This document shows, piece by piece, positions 5,196 through 62,350 of a DNA stretch of 64,000 nt. The translations under genes and the position numbers were made by a program. The stretch spans positions 2,411 to 66,410 of the forward strand of contig JAKLKB010000033.1 in assembly GCA_023150835.1 (NCBI GenBank). The letters run 5' to 3'. Source of the DNA: Myxococcota bacterium. GTDB taxonomy: Bacteria > Myxococcota_C > UBA6777. The notes below the pieces were generated by a model. It did not search any database. It saw only the letters and a program-made list of their open reading frames with translations, and was not told the origin of the DNA. How positions within the stretch are numbered: position 1 is the stretch's first letter; each line of letters starts with the position of its first letter.

Positions 5196-5322
5196 GATAC
5201 GAAATCCACCCACCGTGTGATCGTCAAACGTAGGAGCAGCCCCCTGTGGCTGCCCAAGAACAGGGCAATTACAGCGGATCGCGTCAACATCGCGATCTCA
5301 CACCACTCGGATATCGTATGAG
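5196..5322 (+). repeat. REP-like intergenic element, copy 1 of 4. Core is 'gatacgaaatcc…gtgtgatcgt…ggggcagcccNNtgtggctgccc…ctcggatatcgtatgag'.
   Basis: Shares the conserved 5' and 3' ends and the GGGCAGCC/GGCTGCCC hairpin with the elements at 19649, 33881 and 54138. All four are in the same orientation. Confidence 0.7.
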
Positions 5323-9521: not shown

Positions 9522-10023
9522 CCACATTCTCCACAGTGATCCAACCCACATCGCTCTTGACACGCTCGCCGCATCGTTTTCGGTCGGTGGACTCAAAAAA
9601 ACGTGTGCAACATTAATCCCCTCCCCCCCGCCTGTCAAGCGCAGGAAAACGATCCTGTCAGCGACGATCTTCTTGGATGGATGGGCTTCTCGAAAAGGTG
9701 CGCATCGCATCGTTCAAGATACGGAACACTCTATTGTTCGCAGCCCCTCGAATGGTTTCGTCGTTTGGAAAACGATCGAATCCTTCGTCGGTATGGGGCC
9801 AAGGGGCGACCGTCTATGGCGGAGTGGGTCCCTCGCTCCATTAAAACGATCTGCGAAACTCCTAACAGGACTTACGCAGTCGCCCAAAAAAGCCGTGTTC
9901 GCACCCGTCCAAGCGAGAACATCGAAGTCGGGGGTTTGGAGAAGGGGGTTTGGGGAGGAAGAAGGGGCGAAGGTGTAAAAAGGGCGGAAGATTGGGAGGG
10001 AAAGATGGATTGTTGGGAGCGGA

Positions 10024-14758: not shown

Positions 14759-17505
14759 TCGGCCAACCTATCGTTGCTCTCCCCCCTCTCCAAGACATCC
14801 CCTTCTCCGACTTCCCTTTGCAACTCCCTTCCCGCATCCGCGATCCACACGCTCGCTTTCACCACCAAAAAGGCCCCGCTCGTGTCCTCGCAAGCGAACA
14901 CCAGTGCTATCTTCATCTGCTCTTGCCCTACCACCAAGGGCTTTTTCCCCGCTGGTGGGCCTTGCGCTGGATGCACGAAGTCGAGGAGTTGGAAAAACGC
15001 CCTGCCCAACAAGAGCTTTTTTTCCAAGTCTGCGCGTTGGATATCCGCCGCTGTCAGGGCTGGGTCGAGATCGAATACACCTTCCCGCTTGAACACTTTC
15101 TCTCCGATGCGCAGATGCGCGCTGCACGCGATCTTGCGGGACTCGATCTGGCTTTGTGGGAGCGCTTTTGCGAGATCGGGGCGACCGATATCTGCCAAGA
15201 CGCCGAAGAAGACGCGCTGATCGCATGGATGGCGCGTTTGCATATGCTGGTTGCCGAGCGCATGATCCATCCCTTGTTGTGCGGAGATGTCCGCGATCTC
15301 AAAGCGATATCGTCCTTTGTGCGCGCAGACCTCGAAAAAATGGAGCGCTTTCGCTCTCCTTCGGGCTTTGTCGAACTGGTCTTCGATCAAGAAGTCCAAC
15401 AGTTTTTGTGTGACTTCGAGGAGATGCGCTCACACGGCGACGCTGATCTCGCCCACGATTCTCTCCAAGATATGCTCCACCGCCATCCACAACACGCCGC
15501 GTTGCTAGAGATCGCCGCACGCGAAGCCCTCGAACAACACAACCCCCGCCGCGCCTTACAACACCTCCAGCACGCTTTGCTCGATGATTGTTTTCCCCGA
15601 AAAGACCGACTTTTTTTACTCCGTGCCAAAGCACACCAATCCCTCCACCAAGACCAAGACGCCCTCCAAGAACTCGAACAAGCTCTACTCCAAAACCCCG
15701 CACAGATGGACGTTTGGTTGATTCGGGCTGAGATCTTTTCGCAACAGCAGCAACACGCTCGCGCCCAACGTTGCCTTGACTCGCTGCGTGAACAAGCACC
15801 CGCATGGCGCGGTCTCCATTTCCAATACGCTCTTCTTGCCCAACATCAGGGACTTCTAAAAGAGGCGCTTGATGCTTTCCGCGCAGAAGTCGAATTCCAT
15901 CCCGATCATCAAGAAGCGATCTCTGCTGTGTTGGATCTGGCCCAACAACGGGGAGATCATGCCTTATACAAGCTCTATGCTCGCAAGCGCGACCGCCTCG
16001 CACACAAACAACGAAAAAGCGCTGCCGCGTACACTTCGTCTGTTTCGTTTGAAGATCTCGAGGCGCTTTGTTGCCAAGCCGAAGCGTTGTTTTCGTCTCC
16101 TGTTCGTCGTTGGAGATCAGCGTTTTCTTCTTCGGATGAATCGGATGCTTTTGATGCGGACGCTTATCACGACGACGATATCCCCCTCGAAGAGGCCCTG
16201 TATTGGGCCGATGATACGCCTTGGATAGACTCTGTTCTTGAGTATGGCCCCGCTTCGTCAGATATCTTTTCCTCGGAAGATCCGACCTCTTCTCGCTTTG
16301 ATGTTTTTTCTTCGGAAGATCCGACATCTTCTCGCTTTGATGCTTTTTCTTCGGAAGATCCGACATCTTCTCGCTTTGATGCTTTTTCTTCGGAAGATCC
16401 GACCTCTTCTCGCTTTTTGGAAGGCTCTTCACCTTCTGATCGGTATGATACCGCTTGTCGGCCTCGATCTTTTGGGGGCTTTGTCGCCCCTCAAAAAAAG
16501 TACACGCCTGTTCCTGAAAAGCCCGTTGTCAAGCACACGCCTGTTTCTGAAAGGCAAGCCTTCAAGTACGCGCCTGTTTCTCAAAAGCAGGAGATCGCGT
16601 TGCCTGCGGGTTGTTTTGCGGTAGACGATTCGTTTTTTGCGCGTCTCGGCAGTTTTCGCTACCACGGGATCGGGATTGCTTATGAGGGAGCAACGTACCG
16701 TGTCTCGATGGTGTTTCGCCACCTCGATATCCCATTGCCACAACTACAGTCGTTGGCGTTTCGGCGCGATGTTGCGCGGTTGTTGATCGAACGAGAAGGC
16801 GATGACGTGATCGTGTTGTTGCGCCTTTTTCCAAAACCGCATCTGGATGTGCAGCAGTGGTTGTCTCGATGGGGGCTCGGAGAAGTGCCTTTGATCGCGG
16901 AGTGCCTAGAGCCTTCGGAGATCCGCTGCTCGCCTTCTGCCCGATGGGATCAACTTTATCGACGTCTGCTTGCGGTGATGATGGATGAGGTACGCGAGGC
17001 ATTGTTGCGCGGCGACCTGATGCCCTTGCGAGAGATCTCTCTTTGGCTCCAAGGCATCCGCCCAGAGAGCCATCCACAAATCCCTCTCTACACGGGACTT
17101 TCCACACACGATAGATCTTGTCCCAAGACCCACCCTGTGGCGTTGCACTTTTCTTCCATCCTTGAACAGCTTTTCGCCTACACACCCGCCGATCAGAGGT
17201 TGGCGCTTGGTGTGGAAGACTCTCTCCTTGTCGATGATCTGGGCCTTCTTCCCGGACTTTTCACGCCTCACCCTGAATCAAAACTCTTGCAGCTCGAAGA
17301 GATCCGTTTGCTTGCTTCTCACGATCCCCTCGCCGCGTTCTCTCGCCTTGCCCAATATACGCTCCAATATCGCCTATCTTCCGCTCTGTATGCACTCAAA
17401 GCTGAGATCTGCGATGCGCTGCTGCGCGCTCTCCCCGCCTCTTTGGAGTCCTCCGCTGTGCGCAACATCCAGTCTCGCGCTCTGTTGTTGCGAGATTCTT
17501 TTTAA
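14755..17505 (+). CDS. Hypothetical protein with a TPR-like region and two internal tandem repeats ('SSEDPTSSRFDAF' x4, 'KYTPVPEKPVV' x3).
   Basis: GTG at 14755 is preceded by 'gaggag' 7 nt upstream and overlaps the upstream stop (GTGA), implying translational coupling. The supplied ORF start at 14548 would overlap the previous gene by 210 nt. Confidence 0.5.
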   Translation: MIGQPIVALPPLQDIPFSDFPLQLPSRIRDPHARFHHQKGPARVLASEHQCYLHLLLPYHQGLFPRWWALRWMHEVEELEKRPAQQELFFQVCALDIRRCQGWVEIEYTFPLEHFLSDAQMRAARDLAGLDLALWERFCEIGATDICQDAEEDALIAWMARLHMLVAERMIHPLLCGDVRDLKAISSFVRADLEKMERFRSPSGFVELVFDQEVQQFLCDFEEMRSHGDADLAHDSLQDMLHRHPQHAALLEIAAREALEQHNPRRALQHLQHALLDDCFPRKDRLFLLRAKAHQSLHQDQDALQELEQALLQNPAQMDVWLIRAEIFSQQQQHARAQRCLDSLREQAPAWRGLHFQYALLAQHQGLLKEALDAFRAEVEFHPDHQEAISAVLDLAQQRGDHALYKLYARKRDRLAHKQRKSAAAYTSSVSFEDLEALCCQAEALFSSPVRRWRSAFSSSDESDAFDADAYHDDDIPLEEALYWADDTPWIDSVLEYGPASSDIFSSEDPTSSRFDVFSSEDPTSSRFDAFSSEDPTSSRFDAFSSEDPTSSRFLEGSSPSDRYDTACRPRSFGGFVAPQKKYTPVPEKPVVKHTPVSERQAFKYAPVSQKQEIALPAGCFAVDDSFFARLGSFRYHGIGIAYEGATYRVSMVFRHLDIPLPQLQSLAFRRDVARLLIEREGDDVIVLLRLFPKPHLDVQQWLSRWGLGEVPLIAECLEPSEIRCSPSARWDQLYRRLLAVMMDEVREALLRGDLMPLREISLWLQGIRPESHPQIPLYTGLSTHDRSCPKTHPVALHFSSILEQLFAYTPADQRLALGVEDSLLVDDLGLLPGLFTPHPESKLLQLEEIRLLASHDPLAAFSRLAQYTLQYRLSSALYALKAEICDALLRALPASLESSAVRNIQSRALLLRDSF

Positions 17506-19648: not shown

Positions 19649-19767
19649 CATACGAAATCCGCCCGTTGTGTGATCGTAAAAATGTCGGGGCAGACAGGTG
19701 TGGCTGCCCAACCACTGGGCGTCTACACGCTATTTTTCGATCATAGCTCACTCGGATATCGTCTCAG
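19649..19767 (+). repeat. REP-like intergenic element, copy 2 of 4.
   Basis: 'catacgaaatccgcccgttgtgtgatcgtaaaaatgtcggggcagacaggtgtggctgccc…ctcggatatcgtctcag'. Same family as 5196. Confidence 0.7.
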
Positions 19768-26055: not shown

Positions 26056-28488
26056 ATGGACGCATCCAAGCTTTTTTGTTTTCGACGCATTCTGGGGATC
26101 TTGTTGCTTCTTGGGGGCGTGGGCGTATGGTTTTCTTTGTTGGCTTGTGACGATTATCTCGGTGGTAGCGAAACAAACACAGAGAAAACCGAGAGCGCCA
26201 CCGAAGCCAACCCACCCGAAGAACAGGCTAACCCACCCGAAGAACGCATCCAAAACCCCGAAGAACAGGCCAACCCACCCGAAGAACAGCCCCAATTCCC
26301 CGAAGATAGTGGAATCGAGCAAGGCCCCGAAGAGTCCGTCCTCACCGAGCCTCTTCCTGAAAAAGGACCCGCACAAGAGCGTTCTTGCGCTCGCACGATC
26401 CGCCTCGATACGCGCAAGTTGCCCGGGATGTGTGATGGCGCTTTACCCGATACCATCACTCGCGTCCAAGCTGCGGGCGAATTCAACGCTTGGAACAAAA
26501 CCGATCCGTTGTATGCCCTCCAAGATGCCGACAACGACGGTGTGTTTGAAGGATCGATCTCTCCCCCCGCTGGATCGCACGCTTACAAGTTCGTTTTGAA
26601 CGATAGCGTCTGGTGCATCGATCCCGGAAACCCACAAGAAAAATATGACAACAACATCCGAAACTCTTTGTTGTTAGTCGACGATTGCAAGATGCCTTCC
26701 TTGACATTGGAGCGCCTACACACACCCGCAGGAGCCAAAACGCTCGAAGCCGACGTGCGTTTCTGGCGAGGACAGGGCGGCGGAGACTTTGACAGCCGAT
26801 CCGTTTCGATCACCCTCAACGGTCAGCCTTATACCCAAGCAAGTGTACAGACTGACGGGACGATCCAGATCCGTATGCAAAATGCGGCTTTTGATCGCTA
26901 CACTTTCCGCATCGACGCCAAGGACAAAGACGGTAAAAGCGCAAAGCAGCTTTATTTTTATGGATGGGTCGAAGAAAAAGCCTTCGACTGGCGCGATGGG
27001 GTAATGTACTTCGCATTTGTCGATCGCTTTCACGACGGCGATCCCAAAAACAATGCACCTGTCAACAACATCGCCACACTCGCAAACTACCAAGGCGGCG
27101 ATCTCAAAGGAGTTCTCAACAAGATCCAAGACGGCTACTTTGCCTCGCTTGGTGTCAACGTGATCTGGCTTTCGCCTTTGTATGCAGGCCCAAACCAAGG
27201 AGAACTGGGGTTTGATGGGCGGCGATACAGCGGATATCACGGTTATTGGCCGACCGCTGCACGCAGCATCGAACCCCGCTTTGGAGACTGGGAGCTTTTG
27301 CGCCAAGTCGCACGCGCTGCTCACAAACAAGGCATCCGTCTTCTCGTCGACCTCGCCTCCAACCACGTCCACAGCCAACACCCCTACTTTCAAAACAACC
27401 CAAGCTGGTTCTTTCCCCGCGAGCTTTGCACCGATATCAATTGGAGCAAGCCGATCTCTTGCTGGTTTGATCAATTCCTTCCTGATATCGACTATCAAAA
27501 ATTTGATGCTGCCGCTGCAATGACCGCTGATACGGTGTTTTGGGCGCAAGAAGGCGAGCTCGATGGCTTCCGCGTCGACGCCGTCAAACACATGATCCAC
27601 CTATTCACCCGAAACGTTCGTGCTGCTCTTGAGCGCGAAGTCACACACCAACAACACCATTTCTATCTCGTCGGCGAGACCTTTACTGGCGCGTGGGATT
27701 CGGGCGGTGGGCAGATCATCAAGGATTATGTCAGCCCCGAAGAGCTTTCTGGGCAGTTTGACTTTCCGATCTTTTGGGAGTTTGTCGGCTTATTTGCGCG
27801 ACGCGAAGCCAGCTTCAATTTTTACCGACTGGACGGCGTGATCAAAGAAGTCATCGACAAAAATTATTACGGCAGCGCAAGCATCATGAGCAACTTTATC
27901 GGAAACCACGACGTTCCGCGCTTTGTCTCCCAAGCTGCGGGGCAGATCAGCAATATGTTCAGCGGTGATCGCGGTCGTGCGTGGGATTCCCCTCCCGCTC
28001 TCCCCCAAGACGCCACTCCCTTCAAACGCCTTCGCGTCGCCTTTACCCTATTGATGGGGCTTCCCGGTATCCCCTTGATCTATTATGGCGATGAAGTCGG
28101 ACTCCCGGGCGAAACCGATCCCGACAACCGCCGCATGATGCCTTGGAGCGGCTACTCCGCACAACAGCAAGCCACACTCGATCACCTGAAAAAAGTCGCC
28201 AGTCTACGTCGATCTCACCCCGCCCTCCGCTCTTATCAACGACAAACCTTGTTCGTCGACAATGAACGCTACGCCTACCTTCTCACCGCAGGAAAGCAAC
28301 GCATCATCGTTGCCTCCCGTCGTTCGGGCGATGCCACTCTTTCGATCCCCGTCCAAGGCATCGTCGCCGACGGAGCCTCTGTCCAAGACCTCCTCCGCCA
28401 AAGCAGCCTTTCCCCGCAAGGTGGACGCTTGGCCCTCCCGCTGGACGAAGACGACGCCACCTACCTCTTGCTCCCCGATCTCCCCTGA
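26056..28488 (+). CDS. Alpha-amylase family glycoside hydrolase (GH13), a lipoprotein with an N-terminal 'NPPEEQA' repeat linker.
   Basis: GH13 conserved regions 'LVDLASNHV', 'GFRVDAVKHM', 'YLVGETF', 'FIGNHDVPRF'. Lipobox 'FSLLAC'. ATG 26056 chosen for the signal peptide. Confidence 0.85.
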   Translation: MDASKLFCFRRILGILLLLGGVGVWFSLLACDDYLGGSETNTEKTESATEANPPEEQANPPEERIQNPEEQANPPEEQPQFPEDSGIEQGPEESVLTEPLPEKGPAQERSCARTIRLDTRKLPGMCDGALPDTITRVQAAGEFNAWNKTDPLYALQDADNDGVFEGSISPPAGSHAYKFVLNDSVWCIDPGNPQEKYDNNIRNSLLLVDDCKMPSLTLERLHTPAGAKTLEADVRFWRGQGGGDFDSRSVSITLNGQPYTQASVQTDGTIQIRMQNAAFDRYTFRIDAKDKDGKSAKQLYFYGWVEEKAFDWRDGVMYFAFVDRFHDGDPKNNAPVNNIATLANYQGGDLKGVLNKIQDGYFASLGVNVIWLSPLYAGPNQGELGFDGRRYSGYHGYWPTAARSIEPRFGDWELLRQVARAAHKQGIRLLVDLASNHVHSQHPYFQNNPSWFFPRELCTDINWSKPISCWFDQFLPDIDYQKFDAAAAMTADTVFWAQEGELDGFRVDAVKHMIHLFTRNVRAALEREVTHQQHHFYLVGETFTGAWDSGGGQIIKDYVSPEELSGQFDFPIFWEFVGLFARREASFNFYRLDGVIKEVIDKNYYGSASIMSNFIGNHDVPRFVSQAAGQISNMFSGDRGRAWDSPPALPQDATPFKRLRVAFTLLMGLPGIPLIYYGDEVGLPGETDPDNRRMMPWSGYSAQQQATLDHLKKVASLRRSHPALRSYQRQTLFVDNERYAYLLTAGKQRIIVASRRSGDATLSIPVQGIVADGASVQDLLRQSSLSPQGGRLALPLDEDDATYLLLPDLP

Positions 28489-28489
28489 T

Positions 28490-28721
28490 CCTCCCCCCGC
28501 TGCGTACAACCCTGAGCCTTCGTCCTTGCTTCCCGATCTCCCCTGATCCACCCCCCGCTGCGTACAACCCTGAGCCTTCGTCCTTGCTTCCCGATCTCCC
28601 CTGATCCACCCCTCGCTGCGTACAACCCTGAGCCTTCGTCCTTGCTTCCCGATCTCCCCTGATCCACCCCTCGCTGCGTACAACCCCGAGCCTTCGTCCT
28701 TGCTTCCCGATCTCCCCTCGC
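28490..28721. repeat. 58-bp tandem repeat x4. The first copy includes the last codons and stop codon of the amylase gene.
   Basis: The 'tgcgtacaac' anchor recurs at 28501, 28559, 28617 and 28675. Unit is 'tccaccccNcgctgcgtacaaccctgagccttcgtccttgcttcccgatctcccctga'. Confidence 0.8.
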
Positions 28722-29008: not shown

Positions 29009-29150
29009 TGTTGTGATGGTTTGTGTGTTTCTTGTGTTGTGATGGTTTGTGTGTTTCTTGTGTTGTGATGGTTTGTGTGTTTCTTGTGTTGTGATGGTTT
29101 GTGTGTTTCTTGTGTTGTGATGGTTTATGTTGGTTGTTTGGTTTGTGAGT
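29009..29150. repeat. GT-rich 26-bp tandem repeat (~5 copies) inside a locally AT-richer non-coding stretch.
   Basis: 'gatggtttgtgtgtttcttgtgttgt' recurs with period 26 (29041, 29067, …). Confidence 0.75.
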
Positions 29151-29372
29151 TGTGTGTTTCTTGTGAGTGATGGATTCTTTTTTTGTTGATTTGGGTGTTT
29201 GTGCTTTTTGTTTGAGCCAATTGCCTATTTGAATGTTGTTTCTTTGTGACGTTGTTTTGTGTGTTGGATTTGTTCGGAAGCATCTTTGTTTTGGTAAGTG
29301 TTGTGTTTGTGTTTTTTTGAAAGAATATGTTGGTGACTTGTTCACCGCGTTGAAATGTGAGAGATCGGCCAC

Positions 29373-29400: not shown

Positions 29401-29500
29401 TTGCGGCTTTGTTGGAGTGCAGAAGCCCAAAGGGCGGCCAATGTAGGCGGTTGCAAAGAGAAGCGGCGCAGTAGACAAAACCCCCGTCATCGCGCACTTT

Positions 29501-29616
29501 CAAGCGGAGCCGCTGTGGGTTTGAAAAGCGTCAGATCGGTCCGCCAACACGGGGTCAAGGGGCGACAGTCCCTTGTGGGGAGTGGGGCAAAGCCCCACAA
29601 CATCTATCCAACAAGT
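29501..29616 (+). repeat. Structured repeat family 'A': 'caagcggagc…ccgccaacacggggtcaaggggcNacaggtcccttgtgggg' plus a 'GGGG…CCCCACAA…CCATCCAACAAGT' tail.
   Basis: ~85% identical to 33527..33609. The tail motif recurs at 30464 and 33847. Two hairpins in tandem (CAAGGG/CCCTTG and GTGGGG/CCCCAC). Confidence 0.6.
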
Positions 29617-33880: not shown

Positions 33881-34000
33881 GATACGAAATCCGCAGGGAG
33901 CGTGATCGTAAAAATGTAGGGGCAGCCCCCTGTGGCTGCCCTATTACAGGGCGTCTACGCACTCTCCATTGCGCACACATCATCCGGATATCGTATAAGT
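33881..34000 (+). repeat. REP-like intergenic element, copy 3 of 4.
   Basis: 'gatacgaaatccgcagggagcgtgatcgtaaaaatgtaggggcagccccctgtggctgccc…ccggatatcgtataag'. Confidence 0.7.
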
Positions 34001-36629: not shown

Positions 36630-36901
36630 ACAGGATGCCGACATCCTCTCAAGTGCGTTTTTTTGTGAAAAGGAGGATGCCGACATCCTCTCAAGTGCAT
36701 TTTTTTGTGAAAAGGAGGATGCCGACATCCTCTCAAGTGCGTTCAAGTGTGAAAAGGAGGATGCCGACATCCTCTCAAGTGCGTTTTTTTGTGAAAAGGA
36801 GGATGCCGACATCCTCTCAAGTGCGTTCAAGTGTGAAAAGGAGGATGCCGACATCCTCTCAAGTGCATTTTTTTGTGCAAAGGAGGATGCCGACATCCTC
36901 T
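36630..36901 (+). repeat. Tandem array of 7 x 42-bp units. Each holds a perfect hairpin 'GAGGATG-CCGA-CATCCTC', and four of them are followed by T7.
   Basis: Units 1, 2, 4 and 6 end 'tcaagtgcNtttttttgtgaaaag'. Units 3 and 5 have 'gttcaagtgtg' instead. Lies directly 5' of the acetoacetyl-CoA synthetase start (minus strand). Confidence 0.85.
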
Positions 36902-36920
36902 CCGATACAGAAAGGACCGA

Positions 36921-37035
36921 TGCGGTTGAAAAGGAAAACCCTGAGATATCAGAACGTTGTAGGGGCGGTTCGCGAACCGCCCACGCCCGAACATCTGCCT
37001 TTTTCGTATCGAACTGCGTAAGTCCTATACAGACT
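36921..37035 (+). mobile_element. MITE-like element, copy 1: terminal inverted repeats 'TACGCAGTTGAAAAGG…CCTTTTTCGTATCGAACTGCGTA' around a 20-bp perfect palindrome 'GGGCGGTTCGCGAACCGCCC'.
   Basis: ~88% identical to 59279..59395 over ~115 bp. No ORF. Confidence 0.65.
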
Positions 37036-37048
37036 TTGGTGGAAAGGA

Positions 37049-37510
37049 TTACTTGAAGCGAACCCACGTTTGGTCGCGGTAGAAGAAGGCCAACCATCCG
37101 CGAACTTTGAGGTTGTTGGGGTTTTTGTCATCCAGCCAGATGGAGCAGCCATATTCTTTTCCGTTGGCGGGATCGAGGATCTTGCCATGTCCCCATGTGA
37201 TGTTGTCTTTGGCGGTCATGCCCCAGATGATGGTCATGCCGATGATCTTTTTGTCTTTGCGATCGCCCGTGCATTTGTCGCAATTGGGATCTTGGTTTTC
37301 TGTTTTTTTGCGAAACAGCCGAAGGATGGTCCCTGTGAGCTTGCCGTTGACAAGCTTGATCTCGACGATCGACTTGGGTTGTTTGGTTTTGTCGTCGATG
37401 GTGGTCCACTTTCCAAACACGCGCGTATCGCCCTTGGCGAAGGCGGTGGCGTGGAAAGCAAAGGCAAAAGCAAGAGTCAAGAAGAGATTGCGAAGGGAAA
37501 ACAAACGCAT
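37049..37510 (-). CDS. DUF2147-family secreted protein.
   Basis: Signal peptide 'LFLTLAFAFAFHATAFA'. 'GKWTTIDDKT…NGKLTGTIL…ILDPANGKEYGCSIWL…LKVRG' matches the DUF2147 pattern. Confidence 0.7.
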   Translation of the reverse strand: MRLFSLRNLFLTLAFAFAFHATAFAKGDTRVFGKWTTIDDKTKQPKSIVEIKLVNGKLTGTILRLFRKKTENQDPNCDKCTGDRKDKKIIGMTIIWGMTAKDNITWGHGKILDPANGKEYGCSIWLDDKNPNNLKVRGWLAFFYRDQTWVRFK

Positions 37511-42452: not shown

Positions 42453-45400
42453 ATGAAGAACGTGGACGTGGTGATCGCAGGTCGTTACCGTTGTGCGCGG
42501 CTGATAGGTCGGGGTGGCTTTGCCGAAGTGTACCTTGCCGAAGATCTGCGCCTTGCGAATCGCCGCGTTGCGCTGAAAGTGTTGGTGGAACACGTTGCGG
42601 ATGATCCCGATCGCCTTCAAAAATTTCGCCAAGAAGCCGAGATTATCGGCCATTTGACCAGCCCTTATACGGTGCGGGCTTTCGATTATGGCTACGATGA
42701 GCAAGGGCGTTATTACATCGCGATGGAGTTTGTGCAGGGGGAAACCTTGCACGAGTTGCTAAAGCGGCAGGAGCGGCTTTCGATCGATCGGGCGTTGGAG
42801 GTGGCGATCCAGATATTGGACGCCCTCGAAGAAGCCCATCAGATGGGGATTATCCATCGGGATCTCAAGCCAAAGAACATCATGATCAGCCCGCAGCGCC
42901 AAGGCGATATGGTCAAGGTGCTGGACTTTGGCGTTGCGCGGATCTTGCGACAAGCAGAAGAACAAGACGAGTGGACATTGGTGGGGACGGCGACGTACAT
43001 GGCCCCCGAACAAGCGCAAGGTCTGCCGGTTTCTCCTGCGAGTGATCTGTACTCTGTGGGGGTGGTCCTTTATCACATGTTGGCGGGAAGACCGCCGTTT
43101 TTGTCACAAGAAGACCCTGTTGCGGTGATGATCCATCACGCAACCAAGCCTGTGGTCTCGTTGCGCGAGTTACGCCCAGAGCTTCAGATCCCCGAAGATG
43201 TCGAACAGGCCGTATTGAAGGCGTTGGAGAAACAACCTCAGTACCGCTACCAACAGGCGGGCGCTTTTCGTCGGGCGTTGGAGCGCGCTTTGGCACGCTA
43301 TCTTGAAGCTCATTATGGCGAACCAGAGGGCGATAGCACGCTGAGTACATCGATCACGCTCAAGGATGTCGAAGAAAAGCTCCGTGCCCAAGAGGCCGAC
43401 GCCCAAGCCTCAAGGGCACCTGCTCGCGAACGTGGCGTGATGCCTTCCACTTTGCAAAGCGGAGAGATCCGCGCCCAAGCTGCTTTGCTCGACGATCTGC
43501 ACCGTGTCAACGCTTCTCATACATCGCAAGATCCGATGGCTTCGACTCTCGAAGGCTCTTTCGCGCAAGAAATCGCTTCCCAACACGCCTCGGCGCAAGG
43601 CCCCCAAGCGACACCCTTTGCAGGGGCCGAGTACATCGAGCAGGAAGAAGATGAGGATCAATCCACACAGCGGTTGTCAGGTATCCAAGCCGCTCCCGAA
43701 AAGACAGCGGTACGAAAAACACCGACAGATCGGCCTCGACAGATTACCGATTATGATCTCTTGACGCCGGACTTCCCCGCGATCGAAGAGATCAAAGTCA
43801 ACGAGCAAGGAGCAGGGACGCGCTCGGGGTATTATGCAGCGTCGGGTGATGCTCTGCCTGCGGCAAAGCCGCCTGTGCGCGTTTCTGCGGAAAAAGCGAA
43901 AACTTCACCACGTCAAATGGCGGTGTCGGATCTTCGGGGGCCCTCCCCGAAAGGTGGAGAGTACAGCGACGAAGACGGCGACGAGACGTCGCTGAGTTTG
44001 CAGGATGTGGCGGCGCGTGCGTTGGCCGCCAAGGCCCGCAGCGGAAAGACCACAACAACTCGGGCTGCTTGGTCCGAAGAACAGATCGGCGTCGAAGAAC
44101 GCGATGAGATGACCTTTTCCGAAGAAGACAGCGAGCTTCTCGAAGAAGTCGAAGAGTTGGATGAACACGGCGAAGATGCAACGCTCAAGCCCGGGATGTC
44201 TTCGGAAGAGTTGATCTACGGCTCCAAAGGGGCCGAGATGCGGGATTCTTCGCTGCCAACAGATCGCTCCGATGCTTTTCAATCGGCTCCTGCTTCGGTT
44301 TGGGGGACTGGCGAAGAAGAAGGCTCGACCCAAGTTGGACCCTCTGTGATGGATATCGCGGAGGCTCCGATCTCCCAGACGTATCCGAACTCACAACATC
44401 CTCCGCTCTACGCAGCCCAACACAACGCAGCCCCAGCAGCGGGGCCTACCCAAAACAACGCGATGTCAGGGGCCTTTTCACCACAAAACAACGCGATGTC
44501 TGGAGCCTTTTCGCCGCAAAACAATGCGATGTCAGGGGCCTTTTCACCGCAAAACAATGCGATGTCAGGGGCCTTTTCACCACAAAACAACGCGATGTCA
44601 GGGGCCTTTTCACCACAAAACGGTCCAGCTTCGGGGATGTATGGAACGCCGCCAAAGCAGATGTCCGGGGCGTTTTCTGCCCAAGGTTCGACAAAGCCGA
44701 CGAGCATACCGCCCGCCTTTGGAGAGCATCGATCAGGCGATCAGATCCGCACGATGGCCCCGTCAGGCCCCTCGGCTGCGCAACCGTCGCCCTCAGCGAT
44801 CTTTCAGCCGATCCCCTCCAAAACGTCGGCTCCACCGATGTATGTGAGCAACGGGGCTGTGATGGGTGGTGCCGCAGCTTCGCCTCCCCCGTCGCCGCCG
44901 CCGATCTATCCTGTCCAGCCCACGACAGCGGGGTATCCGCCGCAAGAGCCGACAAATCCTCTTGCACCGCTTCCTGACACGCGGATGTTGCCCATGAACG
45001 AAGTTTCGCCACCTCGGATGCCCAAGGCGGCTTCGCCTGTCCAATCGCTGCTGTCGACGGGTGGCGAGTCTTTGCGCGGGGGGCGCAGCGAAAATGCGTC
45101 GACGATGGAACTCAAAACGGCGTTGATGAAACGTCGATGGTTTGGCTTGATCGGTGCGGTGGTATTTTTGGGGGGGCTGGCGATCTTTTTGATCAGTGTT
45201 GGCGGCGAATCCCAAAAAGATATCGAGAAACGGCAGGCCCAACAGCTTCAAGCCGAGTATATGCGCTCTTTGCAAGAAGGGGATCGGGCGGTGGCGACGG
45301 GCCGTTATCGCGATGCGTTGTCTTCTTACAAGACGGCCTTATTGCACAAAGCCGAGGATCCTGTTGCCACACAACGAATGCAGCAAGTGGTGGTGGACTT

Positions 45401-46857: not shown

Positions 46858-49800
46858 ATGTTCTGGCCACTCACGGAACGCGCATCGAAGGGAAAACCAG
46901 AGTTTGGGCGTATGCCTTGGTTCACCATCGGCTTGATGACAACGTTGTTTTTGGTGTTTGTGTGGACGCGCATCGGGCTGTCTGCGGCAGATCAACGCGT
47001 CGAACAAGCGCGAGAAGCGCTGTCTTGTTATTATTTAACGCACGATTATACACGCATCCCGCCGAAACATCGGGATCTTTTTTCGTCGCGTGTGCTGGCG
47101 CATGCGCGGCGTGCCGAACTCGCGGTGCAGGCTTATTTGACCGACGAACTTGTCCAAAAGAAGGCCCAATCGCTCTTGGGGGGGGGTGAAGAGGGAACGG
47201 ACGAGTGGCGGCAAGAGATGGCTGCCCGCCCCAAAGGGCAGTCTTGCCTTGCGTATGCTTTGCGCCGACGGTTTTTGTCGCGCTCCCCCAATGCGCGGGT
47301 GTATGTGTCGATGGCGCGATTGTACCAAGCGTCTGCACGCAAATACCAAGAAGAACAAGACCAGCTTGTCGCGCATATCCAGCGCATCTTGGACGCCGAA
47401 CAGGCCCATCCTTTGGCGGGATGGGGAGTGCGACCTGCCGTCAACGGGGCAGAAACGATCTTGACGGCTCCTTGGATCCAGCCAAATGTGTTCTCGTTGT
47501 TGTGGTTGTTGTTGTTGCTGTGGCCGATCGGAAAGATGCTCGAAGATCAGTGGCGTTTTCCGATCTGGGGGGCTTGGTGGCTCGCTTCTGCGCTGCTGTG
47601 CAACGGCGTGTTGTGGGTGGTGTTGTCGAGCAGCAAAAGCTTGATCTTGGGGGCGCATGGTGCATTTGCAGGGGTGTTTGCGCTGTGGACGATCGTCTAT
47701 GGCGTAGAGACGGTTCGATGGGCCGTTTGGCTGCCCAAACAGCCCGAACCTCGGGTGTTTGCATTCCAAGGATATTACCTGATCGTGGCGTGGTTTGTGT
47801 TGCAACTTTTCGATACGCTGTTGTTGCAGCGCGCCTCTCCGATCGTTTTTCTGATCCATGTCCTGAGCTTCGGCTTGTTTGCAGGAGCGACTTATTTCTT
47901 GCAACAACAGCGCTGGTTAGAAGTGGTGTTGGGCGAGCCGGTGGCTCCGACCGAAACAGAGATCGCTCAACAAACATGGCGCACCGATGGGCAGATCAAG
48001 CAGATCCAAGAGCAGCACCGTCAAAAACAACTCAAACATGCAGAAGCCTTGGAGCGCAGCAGCCGTTGGAAAGAAGCTGCGCAGATCTACAAAGAACTGA
48101 TGCAGATGGGCCAACCCTCGCTCGAATTGATGTCTTTCTTTATCAGCACCCGTGAAAAGTCTGGTGATCCCGCTTCGATCGAAGAATACTTACAAGCTAC
48201 GCGCTTGGCGTTGTTTGAGCAAAAGCACGCCCAGATGAAGGATCTGTATCTGCGTATGTGTGCAGCCCACGATATCAAACAGCTTTCGCAACGCGAACAT
48301 GTCGCCCTTGCCGGTGAACTCAAGCGCGCAGGATGGCTGCTTGAAGCTGCCGAAGAGGCCGATGCTGCGTCGGAAAAAGGGCAAGACTCCCCGTTGTTTA
48401 TGAAAGCGCTGATCATCCGAGCGGAGTCTCTGCTCGAATACGGCGAAGATCCCGAAGCCGCCATGCGTGTGTTTTATCAAGCCAAAAACTTTTTGCCTTC
48501 CTACCCCGACTTTGAAGAAGCGGTGGTGAAAGGTATGCAAAAAGCACAAGCCGCCGTCGACGCCGAACAGATGGGGCCGCCTGTCTTACCAGCTTCCGAG
48601 CTAGAAGCCGCAACTCCCGCCTTTGGAAGCACCTCGACAGGTCTCAACGCCATCTCGGGAACTTCCGCAGGTCTCAACGCCATCTCGGGAACTTCCGCAG
48701 GTCTCAACGCCATCTCGGGAACTTCCGCAGGTCTCAACACGCTGCGGATGCAAGGACTACCTCGTTCGGCGGCCAAAGTGCCGGTCGCAACAGCCAAAAC
48801 ATCATCCTCCACCGCCAAAGCCCCCCCAAGCACGACGCCCATTCCCCAAGGCCCACCCGGAGCCATCCCCCAAGGCCCACCCGGAGCCGTCCCCCGCCGA
48901 GCGGATGCTGGCCTTCCGTCTGACTACGTCCAGCCTCCCCCCGGACTTGACGGCGAAGAAGCCTTGTTTGGTCGAAGCTTTGATGATCCCTACAAAGAAC
49001 TCAACGAAGCCCCTGCCTCGGGTGCTTCGTGGGAAGAGATCCCAAGCCTTTTGCTTGCTCGTGCTTCGGAGTATGCTGGAAAGTCTGGCTTCGTCAAAGA
49101 AGATGACGCGAAACTTGAACAAGCTGCCGAAGCCCTCAAAGAAAAAGTCGATAACCTCAAAAAAGTTGATGAAGCGTGGCTTTCCGATGACGCAAAGCCC
49201 TCCCCAAATAAAGTCTTTTTTGGTGGTGCCGCCGCAGATCCCAAACGAAACCCCTCGTCAGGTGCCTTTTCCCTTGTCCCCAAACCACCCGTGTCGCCGC
49301 TCGCTTCTTCTTCTGCATCCGTGCCTCCTCGACCCGCTCCTGCCGTCTCATCTACCACTCCTGCCGTCTTATCTACCGCTCCTGCCGTCTTATCTACCAC
49401 TCCTGCCGTTTTATCTACCGCTCCTGCCGTTTTATCTACCGCTCCTGCCGTCTCATCCCCCGCTCCTGCCGTCTTATCCCCCGCTCCTGCCGTCTTATCT
49501 ACCACTACTGCCGTCTCATCCCCCGCTCCTGCCGTGTTTACAGCTACACCACACGCAAAAAGCCCCTCAACATCCCCCAAAAAATCCGAGGGATGGGACT
49601 CTTGGAGCGACGACGCCTTGCCTGCTTCTGAACCTGTCGCTCCTGTGCAGCCCACGCCGCAAGCCGCTCCAAAAGCATCGAATTTCTTTTCAACCGAACT
49701 TTTTTCTCAAGACGCCATCCCTTCGGCGACATCGCTTCCGCCGTTGACCTTTGAAGAACCTTCTTTTGTCTCGTATCCACCGATGCAAGGTGAAGTCTTG

Positions 49801-54137: not shown

Positions 54138-54316
54138 GATACGAAATCCGCCCACTGTGTGATCGTAGGGGCAGCCCGATGTGGCAGCCCAACCACAGGG
54201 CATCTACGCACGACTGATGGAGTCCTTTGACTTTATCGTGTTTGCGATGTGGCAGCCCAACCACAGGGCATCTACGCACGACCCTTCGATCATACATCTC
54301 TCGGATATCGTCTGAG
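54138..54316 (+). repeat. REP-like intergenic element, copy 4 of 4, with an internal ~45-bp duplication.
   Basis: 'gatacgaaatccgcccactgtgtgatcgtaggggcagcccgatgtggcagcccaaccacagggcatctacgcacga' then a repeated 'atgtggcagcccaaccacagggcatctacgcacgac' … 'ctcggatatcgtctgag'. Confidence 0.7.
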
Positions 54317-57559: not shown

Positions 57560-59194
57560 ATGCCAGTCTATCGAATCGAACGGGATGGGAAAACAATCGA
57601 AGTACCGGACTTTTCGACGCTGCGAGCATGGGCCGAAGGGGGACGGATTCGAGCGGAAGATAAGGTGTGGTCACAAGGTTGGAAAGAGCCTGTGCGCGCT
57701 TACGATGTGAGCGGCCTGCGCGAGATCTTCAAAACGCGCAGTGCAGCGCCAAATGCAACCTCCTACGCCAGTGGTCCCGTATACATCGTCTTTGATGGGC
57801 GCGAACAAGTCAGTGCCCCCAACTTTTCTTCCCTTCAACAGCTTACGGCGACGGGGCGTGTGCGTGCGGATGATCTTGTTTGGACCGAAGGATGGGAGGC
57901 TTGGGCGCGAGCTTATGATGTCAGCGGCTTGCGCGATATCTTTAAAAAGCGCAATGAACAGCCCGCAGCAACGATGCGAATGCCGATCCCGCCCTTGCCT
58001 TCAGTAAGCACGAGCGCAGCCTCTTCTTCCTCACCACAAGCCCCTCGCCAGCGCGCACATCGCCGTGCTTCATCGCAAGCCCCGTCCCACCCACAATCTC
58101 AGCCTCAAAAGCCCTCGTGGGTGGCTCAGGTGGGCGAAACCTTCAAAGAACTGAATTCGCTCGCCAAAGAAGGCTTTGAAAAGATGGGCTTTTCGCGAAC
58201 AGGACAACCCAATGCGCGAACATACGCCTCGACAGGGCGGATGTATCAGGCCGATCCTGATCAAGACAGTGCCCCTTCCAACCACACCGCACAATCTCGC
58301 AACCACCGCCAAATCAACGCTTCTGCCTACCGCCACACTGACGCTGCTCTTTGGCACAAAGAACCTTGGCGCTATCGCCGCGAACAAGGCCCTTTTACTT
58401 TGGCTGACTTGCTTTCTCCCGAACATCTCCAGAGCTATCTTTCTTTGCGACGCCACCGCAAGATCGAGGTCCCTTTGCGCAAGATCCTTCCCAACATCGC
58501 GCCATCAAGCTTGTTTCAAGCCCTCGTACCTGACGCGAGGATCTTGCGTGGGCAAGATGACCGCCTTGTTGCGGGCCTTTTGGCACAGATGAGTGCGGCT
58601 TTGGTGTTGCCTGCGCCTGTGGATATCTATGTTTCTGCCAAAAATGCGTGGGAGATGTCTTTGCTCGGAAATCGCCAACAATCCGCGATCTTGGTGGGCG
58701 AAGGATGGCTTGAAGAACTCTCCGAAGTCGGCGTGGCTGGGTTGTTTGCGCAGTTATTGAGTCAATCTTACCTACAAGACGCGCCGTTGCGGACGTTGGC
58801 TTGGTTGCTTTGGAAGCCTGAAGACTTTTCGCGGATCGGAGTTCATTCGATCCCTGCGGTGGATTCAACGTTTTTGCTTGATTGCTTGATGGAGGCGGAT
58901 CACCTCGGCGACCTGATCTCTTTGATGCTTTTGGGACACGAAGACGCTGTGATCGATGCGCTCGAAGAGATGGTCGAAGTCTCGGAAGCACCGCGTGCCT
59001 TGGAACGCTCCAAGGCTGTTCAGTCGATCCAAGCTTATTTCGATACTCCCGCCCCTGCTCTTGCGGAGCGCGTTCCTGCGCTCGAACGCTTCGCAAAAAG
59101 CCATCGCTTCCAAAATCTCACAAGAGGCATCGCCGCTTTCCCTTCGGTGCGCTCAGCCATCCTCGACGTCCAGCGGATCGCAGGCATCGCCTAA
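57560..59194 (+). CDS. Hypothetical protein with two N-terminal GYF-like/DUF4339-like ~55-aa repeats, a S/P/Q-rich linker and a conserved-looking C-terminal domain.
   Basis: 'YRIERDGKTIEVPDFSTLRAWAEGGRIRAEDKVWSQGWKEPVRAYDVSGLREIF' and 'YIVFDGREQVSAPNFSSLQQLTATGRVRADDLVWTEGWEAWARAYDVSGLRDIF'. RBS 'aaggag'. Confidence 0.5.
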   Translation: MPVYRIERDGKTIEVPDFSTLRAWAEGGRIRAEDKVWSQGWKEPVRAYDVSGLREIFKTRSAAPNATSYASGPVYIVFDGREQVSAPNFSSLQQLTATGRVRADDLVWTEGWEAWARAYDVSGLRDIFKKRNEQPAATMRMPIPPLPSVSTSAASSSSPQAPRQRAHRRASSQAPSHPQSQPQKPSWVAQVGETFKELNSLAKEGFEKMGFSRTGQPNARTYASTGRMYQADPDQDSAPSNHTAQSRNHRQINASAYRHTDAALWHKEPWRYRREQGPFTLADLLSPEHLQSYLSLRRHRKIEVPLRKILPNIAPSSLFQALVPDARILRGQDDRLVAGLLAQMSAALVLPAPVDIYVSAKNAWEMSLLGNRQQSAILVGEGWLEELSEVGVAGLFAQLLSQSYLQDAPLRTLAWLLWKPEDFSRIGVHSIPAVDSTFLLDCLMEADHLGDLISLMLLGHEDAVIDALEEMVEVSEAPRALERSKAVQSIQAYFDTPAPALAERVPALERFAKSHRFQNLTRGIAAFPSVRSAILDVQRIAGIA

Positions 59195-59278
59195 GAACGT
59201 CAACGCTCGCTAAAAAAGACAGTCGTTTCCGGCTAACGCTCGGGTGGCCCCACTTGTTTTGCTGATTCGAAATAGGAG

Positions 59279-59395
59279 TTACGCAGTTGAAAAGGAAAAC
59301 CCTGAGATGTCAGCACATTATTAGGGGCGGTTCGCCAACCGCCCGCGCCCGAACATGGCCCTTTTTCGTATCCAACTGCGTAAGTCCTATCGAAA
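59279..59395 (+). mobile_element. MITE-like element, copy 2 (same family as 36921..37035).
   Basis: 'tacgcagttgaaaaggaaaaccctgagatgtcagcacattattaggggcggttcgccaaccgcccgcgcccgaacatggccctttttcgtatccaactgcgta'. Confidence 0.65.
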
Positions 59396-60699: not shown

Positions 60700-61687
60700 A
60701 CGTGAGTTCGAGCTAAAAAGGTAAGCATTTCTGTTCAGTTACACGAATATTAAGAGAAGGTTTCTCGGGCATCATCGAATAACAGACCAAACCAGACAGA
60801 AGATTGACGAAAAAATTGTAAGGGCTACGGTGGCGCGTGTGGTCGATTTGGCAAACGTGTTTCAGATGTTCGTTGACCGTTTCAATAAATACCCGCTTTC
60901 CAAGAACAAGCGAGTCAAACAAAGTCATCAAACGAGGTTTCATGTTCTTACGCATCGTCGTCACAAGAGAGATTCCTTTTGCGTATAAGTCCTCGAATAA
61001 ATCTTGCGAGATGTATCCACGATCCCCATAGAGTCGGCCAAAAAGACCGTGCATCATATCGGGGACAAGGCTGCGGTCATCGACGTTGGCTTTTGTGATG
61101 CGAAAAGCAAGCAGCTCGCCAATGTCGTTGACAACGAGGTGTAGCTTGAAGCCAAAAAACCAGCCCACGGAATCTTTGCTCCACGAAGCCAACCCTGCGA
61201 AGGTTTTATGGGATTTCGCACGTTTGACATACGAGACGACGAGCTTGGTCGAGTCGACAAAAGAGATGCCGCTGCATTCCCCGAGCAGGGAATGGGCGAG
61301 AAAGTACATGGGGATCATCGCCTCCTTCTGGAGTTCGACAAATCTTTGATAACTTGGAAGATTTGGGAAGCAGGAAGCCCATGCCACGCAAACATGACGA
61401 AGGTAAAAGCCCTTGAGATCGCGATATCGGCTTTGGTGGAACATCACAAGTACCGTCATGACTTCACTTGTGTGCATCTTCCGCTTTCTTTTTGCGACGG
61501 AAAACTCCATCTCTTCGACGTAATCCGTCCAATCCTTCTCGAAGGCTTGATAAAAATCATCGACATGGCAAAAGATTTCGGTTAGATCCATGAGCGTACC
61601 CCTTGCTTTCTTTGGGTGTTCGTTTTGCAACTACACTTTGCCAGAGAAAACAAGCGGGTACAACTTTTTTCTTGCTCGAACTCACGT
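60700..61687. mobile_element. IS982-family insertion sequence (~988 bp) with 14-bp perfect terminal inverted repeats 'ACGTGAGTTCGAGC'.
   Basis: 'acgtgagttcgagc' at 60700..60713. Its reverse complement 'gctcgaactcacgt' at 61674..61687. A single transposase ORF fills the interior. Confidence 0.75.
60713..61591 (-). CDS. IS982-family DDE transposase.
   Basis: 'MDLTEIFCHVDDFYQ…' N-terminus. 'FVDSTKL…', 'GYIS' DDE-region motifs typical of IS982. ATG 61591 with 'aagggg'; the supplied ORF start is TTG. Confidence 0.8.
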   Translation of the reverse strand: MDLTEIFCHVDDFYQAFEKDWTDYVEEMEFSVAKRKRKMHTSEVMTVLVMFHQSRYRDLKGFYLRHVCVAWASCFPNLPSYQRFVELQKEAMIPMYFLAHSLLGECSGISFVDSTKLVVSYVKRAKSHKTFAGLASWSKDSVGWFFGFKLHLVVNDIGELLAFRITKANVDDRSLVPDMMHGLFGRLYGDRGYISQDLFEDLYAKGISLVTTMRKNMKPRLMTLFDSLVLGKRVFIETVNEHLKHVCQIDHTRHRSPYNFFVNLLSGLVCYSMMPEKPSLNIRVTEQKCLPF

Positions 61688-62039: not shown

Positions 62040-62350
62040 TCTTCACAAATGCGAAGGCAAAAAGAATTTCGCGGGAAAAGCTGTTCACATCCCGAAGGGC
62101 GCGAGGTTTCAAGCGATGTTCGATTTGGTTTGTTCGCGGGATGCGGAGGCAAGGGGAAATACGCGGTCAAGTCTATTTACCCTCCGAAGGGCAGGGCGTT
62201 TCAGGAAAAGATCGCTTTGAATGGTTCGCGGGATGCGGAGGCAAGGGGAAATACGCGGTCAATCTTGTTCACACGCCGAAGGGCAGGAGGTTTCAGGAAA
62301 AGATCGATTCGATTTGTTCGGAAAGAACGGTAGCAAGGCGAGAGCAGAAA
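62040..62350 (+). repeat. Mosaic repeat block 'Y' (internally duplicated). Homologous to block 'Z' at 63620..63840 on the other side of the GTPase gene.
   Basis: Shared modules 'gttcacaNNccgaagggcNNgNggtttcaNg', 'gttcgcgggatgcggaggcaaggggaaatacgcggtcaa' (x2 exact) and the tail 'atttgttcggaaagaacggtagcaaggcga'. Confidence 0.7.

Follow-up and report, generated by a model that had tools for sequence, protein, structure and literature searches.

Two copies of a short noncoding repeat in a 64-kb window of Myxococcota DNA (the window being the whole stretch that was analysed) are most probably MITEs of the ISAba11 type; we put the probability at about 0.9 that the element is a non-autonomous derivative which a DDE transposase of ISAba11-like type moves in trans. 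It is assigned to the ISAba11 group because the same terminal inverted repeat (TIR) that bounds it also bounds insertion sequences (ISs) of the IS701 family and forms the ends of ISAba11. An initial annotation, made from the letters of the window alone, had suggested either a non-autonomous transposable element or a structured sRNA or recombination site. The transposable element is the reading that held, with more than two copies, target-site duplications, ISs with matching TIRs and a palindrome that is conserved.

The limits of the two copies (Table 1) were set from an alignment of eight full copies, because homology in all eight extends exactly from TAGGAG to GTCCTA, the flanks being unrelated; across the eight, size ranges from 114 to 117 bp. 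The initial annotation had described two copies of about 115 bp at about 88% identity. Both exist, and BLAST within the window aligns them at 88.8% identity over 107 nt (E 5e-35), but the limits now enclose 116 and 117 bp, and over the global alignment 100 of 117 columns (85.5%) are identical. Imperfect TIRs do bound the copies as had been reported, but they extend 5 bp beyond the reported limits on either side. The TIRs are 17 bp long (TAGGAGTTACGCAGTTG / CAACTGCGTAAGTCCTA), with left and right repeats matching at 11 of 17 positions in copy 1 and at 16 of 17 in copy 2. The pattern GGGGCGGTTCGCSAACCGCCC has only two sites in the window, which are the two copies, and none is expected in shuffled sequence. 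Copy 1, with five substitutions in its left TIR, is probably immobile now; judged by its sequence, copy 2 looks intact.

Table 1. Positions of the MITE copies, their parts and related or other repeats (window coordinates unless another locus is named).
Feature	Position (strand)	Size	Sequence	Remark
MITE copy 1	36912..37027 (+)	116 bp		left end decayed; ends from 8-copy alignment
Left target-site duplication, copy 1	36906..36911		TACAGA	ATACAGA at 36905 and 37027
Left TIR, copy 1	36912..36928 (+)		AAGGACCGATGCGGTTG	degenerate, 5 mismatches to family consensus
Central palindrome, copy 1	36963..36982	20 bp	GGGCGGTTCGCGAACCGCCC	perfect
Right TIR, copy 1	37011..37027 (-)		reverse complement TAGGACTTACGCAGTTC	first 13 nt = ISAba11 inverted repeat
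Right target-site duplication, copy 1	37028..37033		TACAGA	
MITE copy 2	59273..59389 (+)	117 bp		ends intact; 8-copy alignment
Left target-site duplication, copy 2	59267..59272		TCGAAA	TCGAAAT at 59267 and 59390
Left TIR, copy 2	59273..59289 (+)		TAGGAGTTACGCAGTTG	0 mismatches to family consensus
Central palindrome, copy 2	59325..59344		GGGCGGTTCGCCAACCGCCC	one central substitution
Right TIR, copy 2	59373..59389 (-)		reverse complement TAGGACTTACGCAGTTG	
Right target-site duplication, copy 2	59390..59395		TCGAAA	
Decayed relatives	9848..9924			solo right-end-like 9848-9864 abuts 'B'-like left end 9866-9924 (resembles L019 'B')
Family 'C' sites	5197-5319, 19650-19720, 33882-33952, 54139-54311; L024 4475-4597			
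Further tandem repeats	28467-28718, 29009-29173, 44451-44621, 49334-49535, 62132-62320			periods 58, 26, 33, 21, 92 bp

A perfect 20-bp palindrome had been credited to both copies. It is present in copy 1, where it folds as an 8-bp GC stem, but in copy 2 the central substitution leaves an 8-bp stem with a 4-nt loop. The conservation of this GC palindrome, which had been named as a check, was borne out by the 8-copy alignment, and the sequence TTGTAGGGGCGGTTCGCGAACCGCCC occurs in seven of the eight copies. With respect to coding capacity, six-frame translation gave no more than about 38 codons, in frames that are stop-interrupted or unconserved between the two window copies, so that the initial report of no ORF stands; the ORFs listed over the region are mechanical calls.

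The neighbourhoods of the two copies are as originally described. Copy 1 lies between a tandem array of 42-bp units, the hairpin array of the initial annotation (36632-36902), and the DUF2147 gene (37049-37510, minus strand), and copy 2 lies just before the low-GC island, where, from about position 59000 on, GC content is 0.44-0.50 instead of about 0.55. The 42-bp array comprises 6.5 units with 91% matches, each unit being a hairpin (GAGGATG-CCGA-CATCCTC) followed by a T-run, and sits between copy 1 and the start of an acetyl-CoA-synthetase-like gene (36596, minus strand). At 16267-16416 there is a 39-bp array of similar kind, whose hairpin is GAAGAT-CCGA-CATCTTC. The further tandem repeats of Table 1, some of them inside long ORFs, make the window unusually repeat-rich.

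Further copies were sought by matching an 18-mer of the conserved left-interior sequence to one genome per species. Six full-length copies, 90-95% identical to those of the window, were found, all in the MAG of 'Myxococcota bacterium isolate KLAP109' (CAUJFU01), where they occupy unrelated sites on six different contigs; the other 51 of the 57 loci returned were chance matches of 18-23 nt. One partial copy stands at the end of a contig from a JGI metagenome (L122), and BLAST of the MITE against PLSDB plasmids gave no match. Proteins flanking both window copies were found solely on short-read (Logan) contigs, from several runs. At copy 1, all six of these contigs, which were recovered from the DUF2147 side only, break off 48 nt beyond the stop codon of DUF2147, at a point 27 nt into the element; at copy 2, most left-side contigs stop 29 nt inside it and most right-side ones start 28 nt inside. 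Such breakage inside the element is the behaviour of de Bruijn assembly at a multicopy repeat. The genome-wide copy count proposed in the initial annotation was thus answered, in favour of more than two copies, by the six full copies, the partial copy and the assembly breaks in several read sets.

Target-site duplications, which had also been left for checking, are present as flanking direct repeats of 5-6 bp at all eight full copies, both window copies included, and six of the eight pairs are perfect. These comprise the 6-mers TACAGA (copy 1), TCGAAA (copy 2), TAGAAA (L007) and TCTTTA (L039) and the 5-mers TTAGA (L024) and TCTCA (L049); the other two pairs match at four of five positions (TCAGA/TCTGA in L019, TAGGA/TGGGA in L009). 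Because random window positions have identical flanking 5-mers with a frequency of 0.0014, and identical 6-mers with one of 0.0005, the chance of finding at least six perfect repeats among eight is about 1.6e-15. The length of the duplication, 5 or 6 bp, varies between copies. Models with duplications of 7-8 bp or 3-4 bp were dropped, as 5-6 bp of the form T..A alone fits all of the copies and the reference ISs. Duplication of TA only, as in the IS630/Tc1 type, with the ends read as TA-GGAG...CTCC-TA, was likewise rejected: four to five further bases are duplicated beyond TA, and the ends of ISAba11 itself place TAGGA within the inverted repeat.

The locus of copy 1 could be compared with that of related genomes. 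The closest named relatives of the DUF2147 protein, at 84% identity, are encoded by two 'Myxococcales bacterium' MAGs (GCA_020632975.1 and GCA_020633035.1), which have the gene order RelA, CCP_MauG, DUF2147 and acetyl-CoA-synthetase-like in common with the window at 75-80% nucleotide identity. The region between the DUF2147 and synthetase genes is 156 nt in both MAGs vs 452 nt in the window, and both the MITE and the 42-bp tandem array are missing from this orthologous 156-nt spacer. Insertion of copy 1 thus appears to be lineage-specific. The search through DUF2147 homologues yielded no base-precise empty site, as intergenic DNA could not be aligned between genomes so diverged (about 75-80% at the nucleotide level); the spacer of the genomes at 84% amino acid identity was non-alignable, and closer matches lay on contigs that were too short.

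The ends of the element are identical to those of ISs that carry a transposase. In a metagenome scan, the TIR 18-mer ATAGGASTTACGCAGTTG was found in at least 120 contigs. Among the matches listed, inverted pairs of the 18-mer stand 1046-1091 bp apart in five contigs, each pair enclosing a single ORF of about 330 aa, and these represent full-length ISs of about 1.05 kb (L091, L097, L103, L130 and L145). The enclosed ORFs score 371-372 bits against the NCBIfam model NF049921 'IS701 family transposase' (cutoff 250) and also match Pfam DDE_Tnp_1 and DDE_5; IS701-type transposase sequence adjoins the TIR at 24 loci among the 120 matches listed of a total of at least 120. In PLSDB, the metagenomic transposase is 33.5% identical, over 96% of its length (E 1e-47), to an annotated 'IS701-like element ISAba11 family transposase' of Acinetobacter and 56% identical to that of a plasmid element from Gloeocapsa. 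The search for an autonomous partner with matching TIRs, as the initial annotation had advised, hence led to full-length metagenomic ISs that encode a transposase of the IS701/ISAba11 group.

ISAba11 is known to have 13-bp inverted repeats and one reported 6-bp duplication (PMC7519801), and a copy in ATCC 19606 is 1101 bp long (PMC7760358). We found the copy in A. baumannii ATCC 17978 (L196) to be 1101 bp as well, its inverted repeats of 13 bp (TAGGACTTACGCA / TGCGTAAGTCCTA) being perfect and its duplication, CATAT, 5 bp long. The element on plasmid pGLO7428.01 of Gloeocapsa sp. PCC 7428 has the ends CAGGAGTTACGCAGTTG, differing from the MITE TIR at the first base only, and a 5-bp duplication, ATGCT. 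The terminal sequence of the ISAba11 group is TAGGA(C/G)TTACGCA. The inverted repeat of ISAba11 itself is matched by the right TIR of the MITE at 13 of 13 positions, TAGGACTTACGCA being its first 13 nt, and by the left TIR at 12 of 13. The metagenomic ISs of ~1.05 kb, which are of the IS701_2 type, share the TIR over 17-18 nt, and their sixth base is G or C, as at the two ends of the MITE. Duplications are 5-6 bp for ISAba11 as for the MITE, and 5 bp for the metagenomic and Gloeocapsa ISs where they are visible (TCCAA, TAAGA, ATGCT); three of the five full-length metagenomic ISs are without one. Since the identity of TIR and inverted repeat, the duplications and the literature agree, both the ends of the MITE and its 5-6 bp duplications are those of the ISAba11 group. 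As a side observation, the terminal 13-17 nt of elements of this group (L091, L097, L103, L130, L145, L195 and L196) are almost invariant though their transposases are only 33-56% identical, and these ends recur in Acinetobacter, cyanobacteria and diverse metagenomes and, with the MITE, in Myxococcota.

In other respects the MITE and these ISs are unlike. ISAba11, hosted by Acinetobacter, is 1101 bp long and encodes its own transposase, whereas the MITE, hosted by a Myxococcota lineage, is 116-117 bp and encodes nothing; the metagenomic and Gloeocapsa ISs are likewise autonomous, with one transposase ORF of roughly 330 aa each, and the interior of the MITE has no sequence in common with the ISs. 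By tblastn of the window and the first 63 loci, a gene for an ISAba11-like transposase is absent from the 64-kb window and from the six KLAP109 loci. Because neither element nor window contains an IS701-family transposase gene, the MITE is taken to be a derivative that depends on the ISAba11 group and not an IS in its own right. An IS982-family element on the right of copy 2, 1.3 kb away (60700-61687), was considered as partner and rejected, as its TIR (ACGTGAGTTCGAGC...) differs and its transposase is of the IS982 type. That IS, 988 bp long with 20-bp TIRs, lies inside the lower-GC region (0.44-0.50) that extends from near 59000; its transposase ORF (60713-61630, minus strand) encodes 305 aa and scores 229 bits against NF033520, and no clear target duplication was seen at its ends.

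From these observations we infer that somewhere else in the cell a full-length IS resembling ISAba11, resident in the genome now or formerly, would supply a DDE transposase that binds both TIRs. The transposase would mobilise the MITE in trans and, at short AT-rich intergenic targets of the form T-N3-4-A, insert it into staggered cuts, whose repair would generate the 5- or 6-bp direct repeats. Composition of the flanks supports a preference for AT-rich T-N3-4-A targets. The central GC-rich palindrome is most simply a passenger sequence; together with the TIRs, it is predicted to fold the whole element into a long hairpin, in DNA or in RNA.

This predicted hairpin could itself be regarded as the functional entity, the repeat then being a structured small RNA gene or a cis-regulatory RNA. 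The folds are more stable than those of shuffled sequences (z = -6.6 and -6.0 in copy 2, -2.9 and -1.9 in copy 1), conservation of the central stem extends over eight copies, and the copies lie 0-100 nt from the ends of ORFs, for which reason some of them are probably transcribed within UTRs. Both strands, however, fold about equally well, and this, like the strength of the predicted fold, arises because pairing of the TIRs dominates; moreover, the few substitutions within the stem are non-compensatory (C>T in L019, C>A in L039). Rfam returned no match for the window at the gathering threshold and none for copy 2 even at E<=1, while a scan detected no sigma-70-like promoter or intrinsic-terminator signal inside either copy; the one terminator-like hairpin, at 59241-59256, lies outside the element, immediately to the left of copy 2. 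The copies take either orientation relative to neighbouring genes with no consistency, and neither target-site duplications nor IS-type ends would be expected of an RNA gene. The structured sRNA of the initial annotation thus appears very unlikely.

The layout of a REP is a GTAG tetranucleotide plus a palindrome, and the core of the MITE, GTAG with GGGCGGTTCGCGAACCGCCC, could be viewed as that of a REP/BIME-type repeat moved by a RAYT (TnpA-REP). The presence of TTGTAGGGGCGGTTCGCGAACCGCCC in seven of the eight copies would be in keeping with such an origin, as would the several other short palindromic repeat families that the genome holds. Against it, the palindrome is never found in the window outside the full element, even with up to 3 mismatches allowed, and the ends belong to an IS of the DDE type; REPs, furthermore, are not known to make target-site duplications, which all eight copies possess. 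It is accordingly extremely improbable that the element moves as a REP. The same must be said of a site for recombination or protein binding that has been repeated for use by the host, despite the perfect 20-bp palindrome and the inverted-repeat architecture that would suit this role: copies are found at unrelated intergenic sites in two genomes, their duplicated targets differ, and related genomes lack the element at the orthologous locus. The genes next to the copies are DUF2147, acetyl-CoA synthetase-like, GYF_2 and NHL-repeat genes, with no recombinase gene among them, and the recombination site of the initial annotation is left with no support.

Apart from the MITE, metagenomes and KLAP109 contain other short elements of 111-350 bp that have the same TIR and 5-bp duplications around unrelated interiors; metagenomic examples are of 119 bp (L177, duplication TTTGA), 213 bp (L173, TAAAA), 111 bp (L164) and 350 bp (L099). 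A second MITE type, 'B', of about 160 bp, with a TIR of the same kind and an unrelated interior, was observed in KLAP109 (L019, 4710-4879 and 5381-5548); in the window it is represented only by decayed copies, at 9848-9924 and 29467-29614, and at 9848-9882 a lone right-end-like sequence meets a left end. Right and left ISAba11-type ends were also seen abutted with exactly 5 nt between them (L019, 5359-5397 and 5532-5570; L049, 7348-7386; L093, 14157-14195), a spacer as long as the target duplication. The pattern points either to tandem junctions or to elements inserting repeatedly, next to a resident one, into the duplicated target. A further repeat family, 'C', of about 70-130 bp, with ends ATACGATATCCG...CGGATTTCGTAT and an internal GC hairpin, is common to the window and KLAP109 at 82-85% identity and directly adjoins a MITE copy in L024.

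Two extensions of the ISAba11-type MITE reading, namely that the interior is a functional module or that the abutted ends reflect targeted insertion, are unlikely when taken jointly. If the former were true, the GTAG-prefixed GC palindrome within a hairpin of roughly 115 nt would exert an effect at the level of the host near gene ends, the module being, for example, a stabiliser of mRNA 3' ends, a processing site or a captured REP-like unit. If the latter were true, insertion targeted beside resident ISAba11-type ends would build arrays of MITEs.

Among known MITEs, MITEAba12 derives from an IS5-family element and has 9-bp duplications, and Correia elements duplicate TA. MITEAba12 of Acinetobacter (PMC6382973), Correia, ERIC, RUP and Nezha (PMC10969869) are of the same kind as the element described here, all being about 100-150 bp, noncoding, intergenic and multicopy, with TIRs, target duplications and a long hairpin; they differ from it in their parent IS families, TIR sequences and duplication lengths. 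A 2024 review of prokaryotic MITEs (PMC10969869) makes no mention of IS701/ISAba11 or of Myxococcota, and no MITE family linked to ISAba11 or IS701 is described in the titles or abstracts of the literature searched. The family thus seems to be undescribed, though its kind is well known and its biology ordinary, and the general understanding of MITEs is unchanged by it. For annotation, its value lies in explaining the breaks in short-read assemblies at these intergenic sites in this Myxococcota lineage, and its copies record two insertions of recent date in the window. The ISAba11 group of IS701 gains a MITE family with it, and the ends of this group are seen to carry many unrelated short passengers in environmental genomes.
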